From: Antechinus flavipes
Lineage: Eukaryota
DNA: 64,000 nucleotides
Reading direction: 5' to 3'
Assembly (NCBI RefSeq): GCF_016432865.1
Contig: NC_067398.1
Location: 295,120,001 to 295,184,000, forward strand
This document shows positions 1,384 through 20,317 of the stretch, one piece after another (the stretch's first letter is position 1; the number at the start of each line of letters is the position of its first letter). A program made the translations under genes and the position numbers. The notes below the pieces were generated by a model. That model saw nothing but the letters and a program-made list of their open reading frames with translations. It did not search any database and was not told where the DNA came from.

Positions 1384-1577
1384 TTATAAAGAAACTTCAT
1401 ACTTATATGCTATACATACTTTCTTGTAGAAGAGAATTTAGAAGCTCTGAAAGTGGGGAGGAACTAATAGTATGATGCAAAGGAAATTAATTTTATCTCA
1501 ATAGAGAGAAAACAACTCATTGATGTAGAATTATTCCTTGAATTGGTTATCAGTGTATAGTCATACTACCAACTTAG

Positions 1578-2033
1578 TGAAATATCTGGGCGAGAGAAAA
1601 TACAGGACAGCCAAAATAATATAAATTTAAGAGTGTTTATTGCTAGCTGGCCAGCGACTGAGCCCCACCAGAACAGGGAAGTCAGTCCTGAGCAGTTTTG
1701 GGAATAAATATTTATAAAAGAAAACCACAGGAATGCTCTAAAACATTTATCCTACTAAAAATTCCATTCCCAGACAGGTAGCAAAGGTTAACAAAGAGAC
1801 AATATTTCTTTAAGTTTTATATTTGTCAAATTGTAAAGGTCTTTGGTTACAGATAAGGTTTAAGGTGGCATATTTGGGGGCTGTGTGTGCCTGCAATTTC
1901 AGACAGAAAATACTACCTGCATTAGGGAGGGAAAAGTTGGTGACATAGTTTTGACTACATACAGAGTTCAAACAAAGATAATATTCTCATGATTTCAGGA
2001 GTACAGGACAGAGGTTAGTGTCCCTCCATTTCA
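1578..2033 (-). mobile_element. 3' LTR of the provirus (456 bp)
   Basis: Starts TGAAATGG right after the PPT and ends CA. AATAAA at 1641-1636 and TATA-like TATAAATA ~1716-1709 on the minus strand. Homologous to 9316-9758. Confidence 0.95.
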
Positions 2034-2045
2034 CTCCCCCCTTTT
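2034..2045 (-). other. Polypurine tract (AAAAGGGGGGAG) abutting the 3' LTR
   Basis: Read directly on the minus strand. Confidence 0.9.
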
Positions 2046-2059
2046 ACTTGTGACTGGTT

Positions 2060-3959
2060 AGAGACTGGATTCATCAAAGGCCAGGGGGAAATAGGTGGTC
2101 TTAGCAACAAACCACTTACCTGCGTTTCCTGATTTATATGGTTAAACAGTTAATCAGACAAGGGGCAATTAGTAGAGCTAGCAGAAATAGAATAAGGGGG
2201 CTTATCAGGGAGGTTATAAAGGAGGTCATCTGGGGGATCAATTAAAAAGTGACTGATACCAGGACATTGTTGTTGGGCATTCTCTCACTCCTCCATGTCT
2301 TCTGACTGTAGATAGAGACTCCCTTACCACCCCTGAGTTGTTAGCATAGAAACAGCAAGCTTCCCCGAGAGCCATACATAGCCCTCGTTTAAAACAGCAA
2401 ATCTAGGCCCATTGATTTTGTAGGACAACCTCTGTCTAGGAGTTTAAGGAGTTCTCCAGGAAGGACATGTGATTTTCTAGGTCCTTTAAATCCTGGTTCA
2501 CCTGGGAATCCAGAGCTAACAATTGGCTGTCACCCTGGATCAGGGCAGCGGTCCCAACAGCCATGGAGCCTCCTATTCCTGGTCCTACTAGCAGGGGAAC
2601 AAGAATAGGAGCAGCTCTCCTTGGCCAACCAAAATGTTCTTCAGCCCCTTCTTCAGAGTACAGATACACTTGAGGGAGCATGTACACAAGTAAGCAAAGC
2701 TCTGGGGATTCTTCCAAAGCTAAAGTGTATTCACTGATACAAGGGCACATGTAAAATAGGACCCTGTTGGGGTCTGTATTAGGGAGTTGGAAGTGTTTTT
2801 GTAGGGCGAACCTCGGTAACCACTACTTAGTGCTTCTTGTATGGGGAGCGCTCCAGATCGTAACTTCTGATTTGAGGCACCATACCTCACCCTCCACCCC
2901 TCCCAAAGTTAACCTGGGAACATGGGCGGTGTGCTCTGGGGGCAGGTTCTCGGCTGAGAGTGAAAGAATCAGGATGGAGTGGGCCTCTGTCCCCCAGGTG
3001 GCACATATATCTATGCCTACAAAGTAAGGGGGGGTCCAGGCAGAGCCAACAGCTTGGCGAGGGTGGGGCTGGTCAGGTTTATCAGCCAATATACTTCATC
3101 AAGGGCTGATATAAAGGTCTTATAGGGAGACAGCAGTCCTCAGGGGAGTGGAAGCTGCGGGGAGGGGAGTGGTGTTTGTCCTGGTTTCCTCCCTTTAGAC
3201 AAAAAGTGGTTGTGGCTGGTCTCAGGAGTAAAGGAGCAGGTTAATAACTGCATTAGGGCTTCTGGGGATACTTTCTCTTGGGAGGGTCCTTTAGATTGTG
3301 AACAGGGCTCCCAAATCTCTTCCTGCCACATAAAATCTGGTACCCCAGCTCCTTCCCAATTCCCAGGCCTCATAATGCCATCCTTTCATGCAATGGGATT
3401 GCAGGTGCCTTCCTTCTGACATTGTTGTGGTGACATCAGTTAACCAAGTGACCATTGATGTGGTAACATCAGTTAACCTATGTATCTTAATGTAGGAGTC
3501 CTTACCTCCCTCCGAGAGCCAATCTCTATGGTCTCACAACCCCATGATCCACAGTGGTACTGGCTCAACCCTTGACACTTAGACGGTCCATTCGCTGGGC
3601 ACATATAGTACTGGGTTTTCCCCAATCCTTTCGCCATGCTCAGGGACCCACATCCATAGGAGGGAAGGACTGTGTTTCTACATTCCCTTCCCTTAATTTG
3701 GAGGGACCGTTTTTTCATGAGTGTTGTAAACCAATGTCAGCAGGAAGGGGGAAGATTCCAAGAGCTGCTCAAGAGCTGGCATAGACCCAGATAAAACCAT
3801 GGCTCTCTGTAAGTATCATTTTGGGCCATCACCTCCCCCCAGTAGTTATTAGGGTCCACACATATCTATGGGGGAAATGTGGCTGGGCTTCCCCAATAGA
3901 GTGGGGGAAACAAGAGGGAGGATCAGGCCATAAAAGAGGATAAGATATGAAAACATCAT
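2060..3959 (-). pseudogene. env: ERV env (gamma-type), disrupted by stops and frameshifts ('env-2')
   Basis: Signal peptide MMFSYLILFYGLILPLVSP; SU motif YYMCPANGPSKCQGLSQYHCGSWGCET; CWLC at 3051-3040; furin site and fusion peptide WPRR|AAPILVPLLVG; frameshifted ISD LQNxxGLDLL; CX6CC (LCMALGEACCFYANNSGVVRES); hydrophobic TM anchor. Confidence 0.93.
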
Positions 3960-5060
3960 CTTCCAGGGTCGGGTCCTGCAGACACCTTGGGAGCAGGGCA
4001 AGGCCTCACATGCAAACGATGGATCCATGTCTTGACCACCTTCACTGCTGAGGGATTAGAGAGGATGACCTGGTATGGGCCAGTCCAGCGGGCTTCTAAT
4101 ACAGAGCCACGAGGAAATTTTCTGGTCAGGATCCAGTCACTGGTTGGAGGTCCAGTCCACAGGCTGGGGTGAGGGAGACTAGGCAGAGGCTCGATATAGA
4201 GCTCTGACCGCTGCCCGGATGTCCTGGAGAGCCTGCAGGGACTTGAAAAGGGAACCATTAGTAACATCATAAGAGCTGTTCTGCCCCATGTGGGGAAGAA
4301 TAGGGGTAGAGCACTGAATAGGATCTCAAAGGGTGAGAGGGAAAGAACGGAAGGATTTGGAGTACACCCAGCCCTAATGAGGGCAAAGGGAAGGAGTCCT
4401 ACCCAGGTCTCGCTAGTTTCCAACTGGAGCTTAGAATTGTGCTCCTTAAGAGTCCTGGTCATTCCTTCCACCCGACCCTAACTCTTTGTCTATAGAAACA
4501 GTGCCAGGGAGTGAACAACATTAGGGAAAAAAAAAAAAAGCTGGGCCATTGTCAGACCTGAGGGAGAGAGGAAGGTTGAACCAGGGGATAATTTGATTCA
4601 TAAGTTTCTTGGCTAGACCAAAGTGGACTAGACTTGATGGGAAAAGCTTAGGGCCAACTGGAGAAGGTGTCAACAAAAACTAAAAGAAAACGATGTCCTT
4701 GAATCTACGTCTCCATATCCATGAAATTAACTTCCCAGTGTTCACTGGGTGTGAGTCCTTGGGGCACAGAGTAGACACAGTGGGGAGATGGGCAGGGTTC
4801 ACTTTGGCACAGGTCAGGCATTGGCAGGCAGCAGTCTCAGTGAGGGTTTTCATTCCAGGGAAGAAAAAGAAATGGGAAAGCAGATCATATAAGGGAGTCC
4901 CCCCAAGTGAGTTAGAGAGTACAGTTTTAAAATAAAAGGATAGCTCAAGGCTTTTGGAAGAATCACACGTCCTTCTGAAGGGCGCCACCAGCCTTGACCA
5001 TCAGCTGAGCCAGGAGGATCTTGAGGTCTGTGCGAGGGTTGGTTGCCCATAGGTTTTGTT
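3960..5060 (-). pseudogene. pol: ERV pol, integrase portion only, disrupted
   Basis: GWW..EGRVILP, THLG...CLTCAKVN zinc finger, FVDTFS, SDNGPAF, VEGMTRTLK (DDE core) and C-terminal WTGPYQVIL motif (ORFs 4850..5050, 4680..4988, 3956..4471). Confidence 0.93.
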
Positions 5061-5279
5061 GAACTCCCCCTTATCTTGAGTTTGTAACCTTAGAGTAACT
5101 AGCCCTAACTTATATCAGCTCTAATGAACAGAAGGAGGGTTTGCAAACGGGAACTGAGGCAGAACAATTAAAGGGAACTGTGGCACAGCATTCTACATGC
5201 TCTCTTCTGAATATTTAAATCATTGAATTACCTTCCTCTAGATACCTGGAAGGTCTCAGCACCATAATTTTTAACCAAT

Positions 5280-5960
5280 CCTATGTGAAGCAATAAATCA
5301 AAATAAAACTAGAAAAATGTAAAGACTTATGGCAAGGACAAGTATTTCTCTGACAACCCCAGAGTTTTCAGCAGTACAAAGGCTCCCTGTTGCAGCATGT
5401 CAGATCCTCTGCAGTTGGGGCACCATCTCAGCCAGAAAATCCAGTTTGAGATGGACAGTTCACTGTGAGTTAGGTGGTCTGCAGTCATTTATGCATGTAA
5501 CTCAGCCTCTGCTTATAGAGCAGCAGGGCTCAAAACAGCCCATTCATAGGGGCAACCCACTCCACCAGGGGAGAAGGGTGAGGCTTGGAGTAGCTTCACC
5601 TGTTCCCACCCAGAGGAACAGACAGGGCTGGTACTAGAATACAGGAAGGATCCAGATTTCTGAGCAGAGTTATCAGCGTATGCACAGTTAGGCCATCAAA
5701 GCAGGCAAACCCTGAACTTTTAGAGGTCTTAGCTCAAAACTACAATGTCCTTTGAAAATGCTGAGACACTAATTAAGAAATGAGGGTTACAGGACTGGAG
5801 ACTGCCAAGTCCCAAGGTGTTTGATTTCTAGTTGTTTCTAAAAAAAAAAAAAAAAAAAAAAATTAGTCCCAAAAACTGAGAGTGCTAGGGCAATTCTAAT
5901 AAAATAAGGGATTCCAAAGCTAAAGTATAACCAGCAATTATAGTCCAGTAAGTTTAAAAA
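5280..5960 (-). pseudogene. Second, more decayed env remnant (SU C-terminus plus TM; 'env-1') upstream of integrase
   Basis: Minus-strand translation with frameshifts: YTLALES; FACFDGLT...CILV; NR(*)-ATP..PLV; AVLSPAAL; SISN/KLDFLAEMVPQ..RG.DML.QQG.LC; AENSGVVRE; then hydrophobic ILVLAISLYIFLVLF. Motif order is that of a gamma-type env. Confidence 0.7.
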
Positions 5961-8900
5961 CGAAAAAGGACTGTTAGAAGGCTTTCAATTCAATCTGAAC
6001 TAGTGAAATAAGGGGTGGGACAGAAGCACCTAAGGCAAAGTGAATAGGAACTGGGGGTTCCCATTCTTTCAGGTATTTTGAGAAAAATCCACCAGTTTCC
6101 CCAATTTCCTATCTCTTCTTCCCTTCTTTTACTTTCAGGCAAATTTACCAAAAAGGCAAATAAATTGTTAAATAACCATCCCACATGTAAATCCCAAGAG
6201 TGAATTCCTATACATATCACAGTAGGGTTTAACAGCAATAGTTACACAATTTTAACAATTTCCATCCCAAATCTTAAACACACAATAATAGATGACCCAA
6301 TCAGGGTTTAACAGTCATTCATCAAGAATTCCCAAATCCCCATATCAGTCCATCATGGGTAGGGGATGAAACTTCATTCGAAACTGCTTCATACTGAGTA
6401 TGGGTGGAGAGTCATATCCAATCCAAGCAGGGGGATGGGTGTGGTGTGGCTTGATGAAAATGATCAAAACTTCCATGTACCAGAAGCAGGTCAATATAGC
6501 TGTAATTTGACCAAAATCTAGAACAAAAAACAAATCTAACAAATAAAGGTTAGAACAGACTAATACAAAATGTGAAAAAGCCAGTATGGCCAGCAGCTTC
6601 CCATGAAAGGAGACAGGCAAATGGCTGCCAGCTGTAGTCCCAGTAAAAACAGCAGGTAAGTTTCACAGATCACTATGCTAATTGTCCTCTCATTAGTTAG
6701 AAACCTTTAAAAAATTGAATATCCACAGACAAAATATTCAGTAACAGATGACCAGGCTAAATACTTATTTGCCTAAGTATTTAGGATATAATAATTATAT
6801 ACAATCAGATTGGAAACAGCAAGATATAATTGAATTGCATTAACAGTTCCTAACATTCCTAAAAACATCATTTCTGATAAGTCACAGGAGGAAAAAAATA
6901 CAGGGACATAACTAAAACATAACATAAGTAGTTAAAACTATCCTTCAGCGCATACAGTATAAAATAGCCTTAACTCAGTTTTAACCAGATAATTAACCTA
7001 ACAGAGCTTTAAAACTCCCAAATAATATTAACCACAAGTCCAAAAATTCGAACTCCACTAACAAATCCCATTAACCAAAGCTTCAGAGAAATCTCAAACA
7101 GGTTTTTATCATAACTTTATATTGATAACAGTAAGAAATTTGTCCCAGTAAATTCACAATTTACCTTTCATATTCAAGTAAATGTTTCCTAAGTGAGCAT
7201 TATACAAATCATTTTGCTTTAAAATACCCAGTACATAGAGAAATCCCAAATTATATTGTCCATAACAGAAACATTTTCAAAAGGACAAAGAAGAAAAAAA
7301 CTATTATTCTCAGAGGTCCTTTAAATGATGGACATAACCTCAGGATACAATCAATTAAAACTTATACAGAATATCCTATACAGAATCTATATTCTATATA
7401 TCATATATTATTATAATTCCACATAAAAGAATCTGAAAGATTCTTAAAAGTATTAAACTTTTAGAAATAACCCTACCAAAGTGGGAATCACATTTATGAT
7501 CACATTCCTTAAACAAGGAAACCATGATATAGCTAAAAAAAAAAATTCAGTTAATTAACTTAAAAGTAGGTCTGTCCCTTTAAATCACAGTTTGCTTTTT
7601 TCAGCAGAGGGCCAAGAGGCAGCAACTTGATTTAAAAAAACAAAAACAAACAAACAAACAAAAAAAAACCAGTTAGAACACACTTAGGGGGAGGGAGGAA
7701 GGGGAAAGGAGAAAGGAGAAGGGAATGCAAGCTAAATCTGCACAAAATATTCCCTCCTGTTCCCCACTCAATTTTTCTCCATCCTTCCATTAAAAACTTT
7801 CCTCTTTTTCTGTTCCTACTTAACTTTTTTCTTTCCCTCTTGTTATATACTTTAAACAAATTCCAACAATCTTTCTAACTAGATGCTCCATTGCTAAAGT
7901 AGCAGAAAGCAATGGGGATGGGAAATGAGCTGAATCTTTACCTTTGAAAACAAAAGATCTCCCATTTCTCCCTCCCCCATCTCTTCTCTTCCTTACTTCT
8001 AAAACCCTTCAAACCTACAACTGCTCCTACAAACCAATCTTTCATAAATCACCTTCATTCTCTTTTCCTTTCCCTTCAAAACGTTTAAGATTCACAATAC
8101 AGTGAATAGCTAAATAACTTCATAAAACCCACATGTCCAGCAAGACATAATTTGTAATGTTAACAAATTACCCAGTGTTTCAGAAGGTAACAAACTGAAT
8201 CAAACCAAATAGTTTTTTTTTTTTTAAGTTTTTCTTTCTTCTGCTTGAGTGTTCTTCTCACAGCAATTAGCTGTCTTACCTCTAGAACTTTTTTTATGGC
8301 CCACCGAAGGCCATGATTGAATTTTATTGCTTTTTTCCTCCTCTCCAACTAGAGCAGGCTGCTTTTTGAAGGGAAAATTTTTTTGCCATTCTTAAAATAA
8401 CCAAGTATTTTCTTTTTCCTCTTTAGTAATAAAGATTTCAATATTCAAACAAATTCTTAAGATCTTATATTCAAAATGACGAAATCTAGCATGTACAGGG
8501 TAGTAAATAGTAAATCATTTCCCATAATTTCAGAATCATCCTAAAATTCCTAACCAAATGTTTTCTTCTGCCTGAGTTTCAAAGCAACTAGCATAAACTT
8601 CTTTTCCCCAGGTGACTTCAATCAGATAAGGTTTTTTATTGTCCTTTTTTCTCTAGCAGGCTTTGAAAACCTGTCTGCCAGTTTTAAAATAGCTAAGCTT
8701 TTTTTTTTTCTTTTTCTGTTCCTTTTACTTACAAATTAGTACAACAGGTTAAAAAAGTTTAAAATCATAAGCAAATGTTTATACTAAGCACAGTTACAAC
8801 ATTGAAATAACCAATTCTTAATCATTGTTTTTAAAACTTTAATACAGCTCTTAAATCAACAATCACACAGAACACAAATCACACAGACATAGACTACATA

Positions 8901-9295
8901 GTTACAACATTAAACAAAACATTTAACATTCCCATTTCAATAGACACATTTAAACACAAAGAGGAGGAAGACAAACAATTACCGAACATAAGACATACAA
9001 TCCAGACAGAAAAACCAGGGCACTCTGACAGCGTCCTGTGGAGGTCAGTAAGGAGTACTGATGCCATGTCCAGTGTAGCCACCTACTCATTCCAGAGTAT
9101 TCACTTGAAATTTAATCGGTTCCTAAAATGCGTGAAGACAATTTGAGCCAAATTAGGTCTCACTCTTCCAATCTGCAGAAGGACGTTACCAAAGTCAGGG
9201 GCTGAGGAACGTCTTCTCAGTGGCCACCCCCTAGAGACGGTAATCCCCTTTGCTCTCCAGAGAAAGGGACTAACAGTCGGATAGAGACAAAGGCT

Positions 9296-9313
9296 ATCTC
9301 GCTGGAGCCTCCA
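9296..9313 (-). other. Primer-binding site, tRNA-Thr type (TGGAGGCTCCAGCGAGAT)
   Basis: Lies 2 nt after the 5' LTR CA. 17/18 complementary to the mammalian tRNA-Thr(UGU) 3' end (TGGAGGCCCCAGCGAGAT, recalled). Confidence 0.85.
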
Positions 9314-9315
9314 AC

Positions 9316-9758
9316 TGACATACCAAGGAGAGAAAATACAGGACAGCCAAAATAATGTAAGTTTAAAATCGTTTATTGGTAGCTGGCAAATGACTGAGCC
9401 CCGCCAGAACAGGAGTCAGCCCTGAGCAGTTTTGGGGACACATATTTATTGAAAAAACCACAGAAATGCTCTAAAACATTTATCACACTAAAAATTCCAT
9501 TCCCAGACAGGTGGGAAAGGTTAACAAGGGGACAATATTTCTTTAAGTTTTATATTTGTCAAGTTGTCAAAGTCTTTGGTGATAAGTTTTAAGGTGGCAT
9601 ATTTGGGGGCCATATGTACCTGCAATTGGAGACAGAAAATACCACCTGCATTAGGGAGGGAAAAGCTGGTAACATAGTTCTGACTACAGACAGAGTTCAA
9701 ACAAAGATAATATTCTCACGGTTTCGGGAGTGCAGGACAGGGGTTAGTGTCCATTTCA
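9316..9758 (-). mobile_element. 5' LTR of the provirus (443 bp)
   Basis: TG...CA termini, followed by the PBS. Roughly 55-60 differences from the 3' LTR by eye (~85-88% identity). Confidence 0.95.
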
Positions 9759-10239
9759 TTAGAGCAAAAATAAAATTCAGCCCAAAGCTAAAAGAATATG
9801 AATGAGAAGAGGATATAGTATACTGCTAAAATGATTCAATTCCAAACAATTTAACCAAATTTTGAAAAATGAGTTATCAATGGAAGAAAAAAAATTATAA
9901 TAATTTCATGTATTAAAAAATTCAGATGTGGAATTTCATTAGTATTGGAATTCCTGTTGAAGAAAATTCTTCGAGGGTCCAAAGCCAGTCTCCTTGTTGT
10001 TAATGTTATACTCTATTACTGTTTCTTCAGAACTACAGAAGTTTAGTCATAATTAATCAGTTATCATAAAGAGAACAAAAAAAGCTTAAGAAGTATCTCA
10101 ATTATCAAACACTGGACTTAATGATCAAATTGAAAGATATGGCAATCTAGGATTTAGCTTGGAATATAAATTAACTTATAAAATATTACAGAGAAAGATG
10201 ATGGAAAATTATGAGCAACATAATTTCATAAAGCAGAAG

Positions 10240-11020
10240 TGATAGAAAATAAAAAAATTTTCTTAAAAATTTTTGGAAGCAAACAGAATGAAAGCAGAGA
10301 AAGAAAACTATAGATCAAATTTCCTAATGAATATTGATGCAAAAATTTTATTTTATTTTATTTTTTAAATTTTATTTTATTTAATAATAACTTTATATTG
10401 ACAGAATCCATGCCAGGGTAATTTTTTACAACATTATCCCTTGTACTCGCTTCTGTTTCGATTTTTCCCCTCCCTCCCTCCAACCCCTCCCCTAGATGGC
10501 AAGCAGTCCTATATATGTTAGATATGTGATGCAAAAATTTAAAATAATATACTAACAAGGAGATTATAGTAATCTATCAGAAGGATTATACTCTATGATC
10601 AGGTAATTAAGGACTGATTCAATATTAGGAAAACTATCAGCATAATTTACCATAGCAATAACAAGACCAACAGAAATATGAATATCTTAATAGATGCAGA
10701 ACTTCTTTTTTTTCTTTCCTTTCTTCCTTTCTTCCTTTTTAAAATAAAATACAACCCCAATTCTATTAAAAAAAAAAAAAAGAAAGAAAAAAAACCATAC
10801 ATACTAGAGGGCATAGGAATAAGTGAAACTTTCCTTAAAATCATAAGTAGTATCTATCTAAAACCATCAGCAAACAAGCATTACTTATAATGGGAATAAA
10901 CTAGAAGCCTTCCCAATAACATCAGGAGTAAAGCATCAAGATGCCCATTATCACCATTATCATTCATTATTTTACTAGAAGTGTTAGCTATAGCAATAAG
11001 AGAAGAAAAAGAAATTGAGG
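10240..11020 (+). mobile_element. Old L1 ORF2 (RT) fragment
   Basis: Degenerate KENYRxISLMNIDAKI, QGCPLSPLLF.I.LEVLAIAIREEKEIEG. Confidence 0.85.
10349..10526 (-). mobile_element. Young, severely 5'-truncated L1 3' end nested in an older L1
   Basis: T-rich tail, dasyurid-type L1 3' UTR, 14-bp TSD TGATGCAAAAATTT (10335-10348 and 10527-10540). Confidence 0.92.
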
Positions 11021-18329: not shown

Positions 18330-19289
18330 TACCACTCATATGAGTGTTCCAAATCACTATTGATCAGAGAAATGCAAATTAAGACAACTCTGAGATACCA
18401 CTACACACCTGTCAGTTTGGCTAAGATGACAGAAAAAAATAATGATGAATGTTGGAGGGGATGCAGGGAAAACTGGGACACTGATGCATTGTCAGTGGAG
18501 TTGTGAACGAATCCAACCATTCTGGAGAACAATCTGGAATTATGCCCAAAAAGTTATTAAACTGTGCATACCCTTTGATCCAGCAGTGTTACTTCTGGGC
18601 TTATATCCCAAAGAAATACTAAAGAAGGGAAAGGGACCTATATGTGCCAAAATGTTTGTGGCAGCCCTGTTTGTAGTGGCTAGAAACTGGAAATTGAATG
18701 GATGCCCATCAATTGGAGAATGGCTGAATAAATTGTGATATATGAATGTTATGGAATATTATTGTTCTTTAAGAAATAACCAGCAGGATGAATATAGAGA
18801 GGCTTGGAGAGACTTACATGAACTGATGCTAAGTGAAATGAGCAAAACCAGGAGATCATTATACACTTCAACAATAATATTGTATGAGGATGTTTTCTGA
18901 TGGAAGTGGATTTCTTTGACAAAGAGACCTAACTCAGTTTCAATTGATAAATAATGGACAGAAGCAGCTACATCCAAAGAAAGAACACTGGGAAATGAAT
19001 GTAAACTATTTGCATTTTTGTTTTTCTTCCCGGGTTATTTTTACCTTCTGAATCCAATTCTCCCTGTGCAACAAGAGAACTGTTCGGTTCTGCAAACATA
19101 TATTGTATCTAGGATACACTACAACATATTTAACATATATAGGACTGCTTGCCATCTAGGGGAGAAGGTAGAGGGAGGGAGGGGAAAAATCAGAACAGAA
19201 GCGAGTGCAAGGGATAATGTTGTAAAAAAAATTACCCTGGCATGGGTTCTGTCAATAAAAAGTTATTATAAAATAAAATTTAAAAAAAA
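18330..19289 (+). mobile_element. Young 5'-truncated L1 (ORF2 C-terminus plus 3' UTR)
   Basis: ORF2 cysteine-rich tail (ORF 18442..18738), A-tail, 15-bp TSD GAAAGTGTTAATAAT (18315-18329 and 19290-19304). Confidence 0.95.
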
Positions 19290-20317
19290 GAAAGTGTTAA
19301 TAATGCAGATTAAAGTTTTTTTTTAATTTTGGTTAATTTTAAACAAATTCTTTGGTTATTAAATACTTATCAGAATATCACTATAGAGGGAAGACTCTTT
19401 TATATTGATTGGTTCCTTCATGGAATATTTAAGAATGCTAAGAAGCATAGACAAGAATGACAAAAGGTAGATATTGTTAGTCTGTGATCTTCACAACTGA
19501 AAGAAATGTTCACACAGATGATTATCAAGCTACTTTTCAACTACCAAAGATGTTTAAACATTGTAATAAAGGAAGAGAATTTACTAGGATCCAAGGGGGG
19601 GGAAATAGCTGCAAAGGTCTTTAAAGGTCATCTATTCCGACTCCCTTTTCCAGATATGATATCTGAGGAGGAGAGAAGTTAAATATGACTTGTCTCAGGC
19701 CATACAGATAGTAAATAGAAAAGGTGGGGTTTGAATCTCTCTTTATACCCAATGTTCTTTGCATTTCACCATGCATGACCTAGCTAGGATGTAGAGCATC
19801 AGACTTATTTTAGTTAAGGGCTTCAACAATCATTAGTTATGTTATCCCAGACTAAATGACTTTAGTATTTTTCTGCTCCTAAGTTGTCTCTTTTGTAAAA
19901 TGGGTAAAATTCTTATGCTATTTTATCTCCAAAAACATTTGTAAAAAAATGCTTTGTGACCATCAAAGTTAAATGGAATCAGGTGTTCTAGAAGCTCCAT
20001 TCCACAATTAGTCATCTGACAATTCATTCCAGTGTTTCTCTAAACCTTCAGGATCCACAAGTCAAGTAGAATTTATCAAGCTTCTACCATGTGTCAATAA
20101 TTGTACTAGGCCTGGGAATATGAAGAAACCTCTCCTCCACATCCCTGCTTTCAGTCAAATTAAAGGGGAAGACTATGAACAAACAATCATGAATAAAGAA
20201 AATATATGCAGAATATAAACTGGAGATATTAGAGGAAAGGCTTTTTTTTTTTTTTTTGGAGCGGGGAAGAGGAATCAGATAAGACTTCTTGGAGAAAGTA
20301 CGACATGAAGGAAATAC

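Follow-up and report, generated by a model that had tools for sequence, protein, structure and literature searches.

A recurring provirus family in Antechinus flavipes recombined from a gamma-type endogenous retrovirus and a non-autonomous element with an env remnant

How does a provirus come to carry two env-derived stretches, one of them upstream of its integrase, and no gag, protease or reverse transcriptase (RT)? This question is raised by an endogenous retrovirus (ERV) on the minus strand of a 64,000-nucleotide stretch of Antechinus flavipes DNA (contig NC_067398.1, positions 295,120,001 to 295,184,000), hereafter the window, whose own numbering is used below. An earlier note on this DNA had described a true integration at 1578-9758, with paired long terminal repeats (LTRs), a Thr-type primer site, a polypurine tract and a TTAG target duplication; all of these were recovered, and the provirus measures 8,181 bp. 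We found that the element is a recombinant of two families, A and B, both present in this genome. In our best explanation, to which we assign a probability of roughly 0.8, a stretch of B comprising its middle, env remnant, purine tract and the beginning of its LTR took the place of the gag-pro-RT region of A, likely through two template switches, and the product likely spread with A as its helper. The parts of the provirus are listed in Table 1. L-numbers denote other genomic loci compared with the window copy, and canonical copies are the gag-bearing copies of A.

The absence of gag-pro-RT claimed by the earlier note was borne out. A Pfam scan of window 6000-9320 gave no match of any kind, and the middle of two better-kept copies gave one spurious weak match (E 0.03). 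When gag and pol of A were compared by tblastx with 40 middle regions, the best E value was 0.06, and no gag or pol remnant was found in the B-derived middle. Further downstream, integrase domains were recognized at ~4000-4900 (MLVIN_C, E 4e-9; Integrase_H2C2, 8e-4; rve, 0.04), while a protein search with the window integrase open reading frame returned no matches among 456 candidates. The env downstream of integrase (env-2) matched TLV_coat (E 3e-30). It is S71/HERV-T-like; its nearest proteins are labelled Antechinus flavipes and wombat, and the A. flavipes protein was found at 100% identity in this genome. The aligned part of env-2 in the window contains 11 stops and at least two frameshifts. 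Private to the window copy are a ~33-bp tandem duplication in env-2 (3420-3478), a 29-bp integrase deletion (~4503) and a long T run (5836-5860).

The proposal that a decayed env (env-1) lies upstream of integrase held for the family, but not for the window copy on its own. Pfam searches of single frames of env-1 found nothing in the window or in five other copies, and the window env-1 alone reached a frameshift-tolerant score of 23.9, which is not significant against 30 shuffles (mean 16.5, maximum 30.1). An env profile made from 61 natural proteins detected a domain scoring 10 bits or more in 17 of the 41 homologous regions, and in none of 287 antisense, reversed or shuffled controls. The best match (18.7 bits, per-sequence E 3e-8) fell at the CWLC motif of the surface subunit (SU), and the transmembrane (TM) motifs come after it, in env order. 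In the frameshift-tolerant test of 14 copies including the window, 13 scored above their own shuffle mean and 12 above their own shuffle maximum, the exceptions being the window and L030; because the copies are related, this is one signal seen repeatedly and not a set of independent tests. At the family level, env-1 is confirmed as an env remnant. In the NSGVVRE motif, env-1 and env-2 differ at five codons, all at the third position, as the earlier note had stated. A tandem duplication was considered for the two env stretches and rejected: a DNA profile of env-1 run against eight env-2 copies gave a best E value of 0.074 and direct tblastx one of 0.12, with no significant similarity. By eye, env-1 at window 5444-5423 reads LAEMV, as in the env remnant of the koala element PhER (supplement of PMC5696478), and env-2 differs; this motif hints at a possible common env lineage of B and PhER.

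The junction between B sequence and integrase recurs genome-wide, a check that had been proposed for it. It was present in 42 of 76 fetched stretches and in the window, giving at least 43 loci. All 40 scored matches to a 141-bp junction query span the junction, among the matches listed (at least 40), and 35 of 40 loci that include the start of integrase carry it, the other five being canonical. After two trios of segmental duplicates were discounted (L049/L053/L054 and L073-L075, with shared flanks and 88-97% identity), ~39 separate recombinant insertions remained. They recur as copies of one mosaic, all in sense orientation and with different flanks, and perfect 4-bp duplications, all different, flank 10 of 23 recombinant LTR pairs. 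A nested insertion with its own target duplication was looked for as a possible refutation; the junction is not unique, and no nested-insertion signature was seen. Contigs in the DNA of four other organisms bridge the junction, and contigs in two organisms, one of them among those four and 8% diverged, bridge the flank and LTR of the window insertion; two further sequence runs (X1 and X3) had no coverage at this flank, which is no proof of absence. The Kimura two-parameter (K2P) distances of recombinant LTR pairs, 0.024-0.152, overlap those of B (0.083-0.138, n = 7) and A (0.090, n = 1); the window pair stands at 0.109. At an assumed substitution rate of 1-3e-9 per site per year, the window copy would be ~18-55 million years old and the youngest copy ~4-12. 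At L060, L063, L067, L069, L077 and L081 the recombinant is present in forms shortened by deletion, several of which have an LTR pair. L041 holds a solo B LTR (LTR-B) inserted inside a recombinant (~3857-4353), and L056 a B-type piece in tandem with one.

Parent A was found by genome searches with integrase and leader queries. It is an ordinary gamma-type provirus of ~8.7 kb, gag-pro-pol-env, with an S71-like env. In copies L036, L037 and L039, Gag_MA, Gag_p30, RVT_1 and RNase_H matches lie between the leader and the integrase-env-LTR that the recombinant also has, and an RVP (protease) match was found in L037 and L039. The pattern of a class I gamma-type ERV is present in canonical order: Gag_MA, Gag_p30, protease, RT, RNase H, an integrase C-terminus of murine leukaemia virus (MLV) type and TLV_coat. 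L037 also shows an insertion after integrase and an inverted env piece. A gag search in which all 26 candidates were scored gave 8 close ones, hence about eight gag-bearing copies of A; against these, the recombinant loci stand at ~5 to 1 in this assembly.

Parent B came to light because matches to window 4900-5750 were either full-length or ended near 5149. The ten B loci fetched match window 5149-8928, three of them partially, and then continue into a different LTR. Their layout comprises their own LTR, a Thr-type primer site, ~3.7 kb of non-coding sequence, an env remnant, a purine tract and an LTR, 4.6-5.2 kb in total. LTR pairs were found at seven of the ten, and four of the seven have perfect 4-bp duplications. 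An internal B piece drew 1,810 first-look candidates versus 67 for integrase, although candidates are not copy numbers. B is therefore a separate non-autonomous element, abundant in this genome and bounded by an LTR of its own. Its likeness to the MER4 group is functional only, consisting of an LTR pair, a Thr-type primer site, no gag or pol and an env remnant.

The division of the recombinant between its parents follows. A contributed the LTRs, the primer site, the leader to the gag start, integrase and env-2; B contributed the AT-rich middle, the env remnant, the purine tract and ~130 bp of LTR. Since LTRs, leader, integrase and env-2 are all of A, it was gag-pro-RT of A that was replaced by the middle of B. 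The earlier note was right to see a helper-dependent chimera in which a non-autonomous element carrying an env remnant is joined with another ERV, and both parents have now been found. Its polarity, in which a non-autonomous lineage gained an integrase-env cassette, is reversed, as A is the source of the LTRs, the primer site and the leader, and the LTR of B is different.

At the 3' crossover, the window tracks B through the purine tract at 5209-5191 and ~130 bp of the LTR's U3 region, and enters the RNase H-integrase linker of A at ~5053. A purine run at 5076-5062 was considered as the polypurine tract of B and rejected, as pure B LTRs hold the same run inside U3. At the 5' crossover, most recombinants leave A 5 nt before the gag ATG and retain ~200 bp of additional B leader. 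In the window and L061, the gag ATG of A is kept and the ~200 bp of B leader is absent (window 8927-8943); this second junction type suggests that crossing over near the start of gag happened more than once. Neither crossover lies at an end of the B LTR. No target duplication flanks the B part, and no B 5' LTR or B LTR end was found at either junction.

Herein, we describe the process that could have formed the recombinant. Minus-strand synthesis would have copied the 3' end of A through env and integrase and jumped to a B RNA inside U3. Synthesis would then have copied B as far as its leader and returned to A at the gag start. The product would retain the cis-signals of A (LTR ends, primer site, leader and purine tract), with the packaging signal probably within the leader at 8930-9295, and so would be mobilised by the machinery of A. 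As its two ends remained homologous to A and its middle to B, it would likely have gone on swapping segments with both over millions of years. The two-env layout is a by-product of the crossover positions.

Two shared, frame-breaking deletions bear on how the family spread. The first removes 73 bp of integrase in 23 of 31 aligned recombinants; the second removes 413 bp from the 5' part of SU in env-2 in 15 of the 31 (16 with L066). L013 and L068, being too short, were left out of this survey. Both deletions are absent from the canonical copies that cover the sites (L036, L037, L039 and L079). LTR pairs are youngest in the env-deleted group (median K2P 0.076, n = 11, versus 0.110, n = 7). Because deletion-bearing copies include the youngest pairs, insertion continued although the element had no Gag, RT, integrase or Env of its own. 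For the env-deleted group, spread by means of helpers is practically demonstrated; the recombinant family as a whole likely spread on proteins from intact A helpers, and its retained integrase and env were most likely passengers. That the element supplied its own envelope, as had been suggested, is not supported, for the family kept inserting after the frameshifting 413-bp deletion.

Segments were also exchanged after the recombinant had formed. All four combinations of the 73-bp and 413-bp deletions are present. In the integrase tree, canonical copies occupy four separate positions among the recombinants, as its starred branches require; the LTR tree likewise shows four such positions, and strong branches require three of these. 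The window copy is itself a patchwork. The distance of the window integrase from canonical L031, 0.107, equals the window's own LTR-LTR distance (0.106), versus 0.15-0.19 for six other copies. Window 6950-6560 is nearest to six pure B copies, and in the env-1 tree the window is sister to B copies (98/98). Trees of the leader and of the integrase C-terminus had little resolution. Each tree omitted loci under its coverage cut-off; L056 was excluded from the integrase and env-1 trees and from the leader, integrase C-terminal and TM trees, and L053 and L054, duplicates of L049, from the latter three and from the codon tests. These patterns would be explained most simply if template switching took place repeatedly between the recombinant and A and B RNAs packaged with it.

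Several observations weigh against the replacement of gag-pro-RT by template switching and its spread by helpers alone. The 3' crossover lacks clear microhomology, and ~7 nt there match neither sampled parent. In the 13 recombinants whose env-2 is full length, the TM variants that they share lie preferentially at third codon positions (non-CpG 49 versus 14 + 6, p 7e-8), and no shared frameshift kills env-2. Thus, env was under selection somewhere in the history of the full-env recombinants. Pairs of group Y keep a p3/p12 of 1.93. L031 lies ~1 Mb from the window, and gene conversion could explain its close integrase; some trees were built by a quick method and have few supported branches. Finally, a DNA-level origin of the first recombinant keeps, with fossil copies as the record, a small share of probability.

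The alternative that survives best holds that an early recombinant made a working env-2 through the splice sites of A, and that this was lost only in a later sub-lineage. We consider it possible but doubtful. Motifs that we take to be splice sites, following MLV anatomy, are widespread: a donor-like GGTAA in at least 24 of 41 copies and an acceptor-like CAG/GC in at least 36 of 48, among the eight commonest patterns listed. The TM third-position excess in full-env recombinants (odds ratio, OR, 2.9-4.8) and the lack of a shared inactivating lesion agree with it. However, the excess in 5' SU is weak (OR 1.4-1.5, p 0.14-0.19, 17 copies), and TM shows an excess also in env copies already dead by deletion (OR 2.4, p 0.036; p3/p12 1.50). 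Canonical copies lie within the TM and LTR clades, which points to import from helpers, and the youngest LTR pairs belong to the env-deleted group. Import of helper 3' ends accounts for the TM excess without env function in the recombinant.

Under a DNA-level origin, an A provirus would first have received a B insertion and then lost gag-pro-RT, together with most of the two B LTRs, through two deletions, before the product was mobilised in trans. Nested insertions of B LTRs do occur (L041, L056), and the 3' junction is apparently of single origin; still, this route is improbable, as it requires two extra deletions and leaves unexplained why neither junction bears a B 5' LTR, a B LTR end or a target duplication, why both junctions lie in sequence present in genomic RNAs, and why a second 5' junction type exists in the window and L061. 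A unique post-integration accident or a duplication of env within one provirus has practically no chance of being correct, given junctions at no fewer than 43 loci with different duplications and the best E value of 0.074 between the env-1 profile and env-2.

Replacement of gag-pro-RT of A by part of B has close parallels elsewhere. In the koala, recKoRV1 joins the LTR and leader of koala retrovirus (KoRV) to 4.9 kb from the 3' end of PhER, a non-autonomous element whose decayed env and LTR are included, followed by the env end and LTR of KoRV (PMC5696478, PMC6112702). Spread on proteins borrowed from intact relatives has likewise been proposed for the recKoRV elements. The window family fits this type of plan, with LTRs and a leader that come from an autonomous gammaretrovirus and reach the gag start, a non-autonomous 3' part with decayed env running into its 3' LTR, a viral 3' end, and many loci with their own target duplications. 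The env remnant of PhER is also S71/HERV-T-like and extends from near the CWLC motif through TM (PMC5696478 supplement). The host is different and the parents probably are as well, the LTR start of PhER is unlike LTR-B by eye, and the available text of PMC11334065 reports no KoRV-like clade in the devil. Here the whole integrase and a full-length env are kept, whereas recKoRV1 has an env stub, so that the viral 3' part is not a truncated env; only ~130 bp of donor LTR is present, whereas recKoRV1 has all of it; and the family is millions of years old with long-term segment swapping, whereas recKoRV1 is <50,000 years old. The excess over the gag-bearing parent also sets the window family apart.

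The human element Harlequin has the structure LTR2-HERVE-MER57I-LTR8-MER4I-HERVI-HERVE-LTR2, and supply of envelope in trans has already been suggested for elements like it (PMC4724089). It shares with the window family autonomous class I ERV ends, a non-autonomous middle with an internal LTR, a 3' env, repeated reintegration and ongoing mosaicism. Harlequin belongs to an unrelated lineage and has several donors, versus two resolved parents here; the window family has two tandem env-derived stretches, which the available text of PMC4724089 does not state for Harlequin. That paper recognizes reintegrated mosaics by several sense-oriented chains of the same mosaic with different flanks, as found here, and by one LTR type at both ends with no third, unrelated LTR inside; the window family has one LTR type at both ends and ~130 bp of LTR-B internally, and Harlequin itself has LTR8. 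The gag-pro-pol-env order that marks an infectious recombinant in the same source is absent from the window element. Among dasyurid ERVs, the gamma-like clades MEGrv 1-3 resemble A by description (class I, ~8.7 kb, S71-like env): the term S71-like is applied to MEGrv 3, and MEGrv 1 and 2 measure 8.5 kb and have LTRs of 451 and 486 nt (PMC11334065). The recombinants of that paper are beta-gamma env swaps, unlike the window family, and its main text contains no occurrence of "non-autonomous", "nonautonomous" or "PhER".

VL30 is a mechanistic precedent only, in that template switching becomes available after co-packaging. VL30-derived sarcoma viruses are an example. VL30 is a non-autonomous LTR element that is co-packaged by a gammaretrovirus, MLV (PMC4997597).

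The literature searched holds no prior description of the window family; Repbase, Dfam and subscription papers lay outside that search, and a repeat-library entry may exist. It is a real, recurring and apparently undescribed dasyurid family of the recKoRV/Harlequin kind. No new mechanism and no host function are implied. In the koala, recombination with old non-autonomous elements has been proposed to disable an invading retrovirus and remobilise the old element, and only the first 50,000 years are visible. The window family looks like a finished run of such a process in another marsupial lineage. With both parents, both crossovers and a dated series of copies readable, it offers an old, fully readable parallel to recKoRV, and it suggests a long-term outcome in which the recombinant outnumbers its parent, continues swapping, and loses integrase and env. 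Gene-based ERV surveys would miscount these copies as integrase/env fragments of A. A fuller history can be drawn only tentatively and strikes us as unlikely in its entirety: a recKoRV in deep time, at first with a working env behind a dead one, that outgrew its parent about five-fold, persisted across a marsupial radiation as a three-way recombining swarm re-capped by the LTR, integrase and env of each helper subfamily, and spread best once its env was broken.

Table 1. Parts of the provirus in the window, in the order of its own 5' to 3' direction
Feature	Position	Strand	Remarks
Target-site duplication TTAG, 5' side	9759-9762	.	direct sequence match with 1574-1577
5' LTR, A type	9316-9758	-	443 bp; nearest LTRs L061, L044, canonical L079, L058
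Primer binding site, tRNA-Thr(TGT)	9296-9313	-	17/18 bases against 3' end of genomic tRNA-Thr(TGT) + CCA
A leader including gag ATG (~8935)	8930-9295	-	splice-donor-like GT at 9190
5' crossover, minor type common to window and L061	8927-8935	-	
B non-coding middle	6000-8928	-	AT-rich, CpG observed/expected 0.08, without gag/pol match
env-1, B env remnant	5215-6000	-	C-terminal SU, CWLC-like motif ~5940; TM motifs 5444-5346; 3' end shortened
B polypurine tract, now internal	5191-5209	-	
B LTR start (U3), first ~130 bp	5061-5190	-	contains purine run 5076-5062
3' crossover, B U3 to A RNase H-integrase linker	5053-5061	-	~7 nt unlike either sampled parent
A pol end (linker; complete but broken integrase)	3956-5053	-	splice-acceptor-like AG at 4233; nearest copy canonical L031
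env-2, A env, S71/HERV-T-like	2060-3960	-	full length, dead
A polypurine tract (3')	2034-2049	-	~2049-2034
3' LTR, A type	1578-2033	-	456 bp
Target-site duplication TTAG, 3' side	1574-1577	.	matches 9759-9762

Two observations lie outside the history of the provirus. Other gamma-type families in this genome have many loci with long stop-free env-like frames, which are unrelated to the history of the element as far as tested. Beyond the provirus, window 10361-10527 and 19124-19292 hold two copies of a short interspersed repeat in opposite orientation, ~90% alike.

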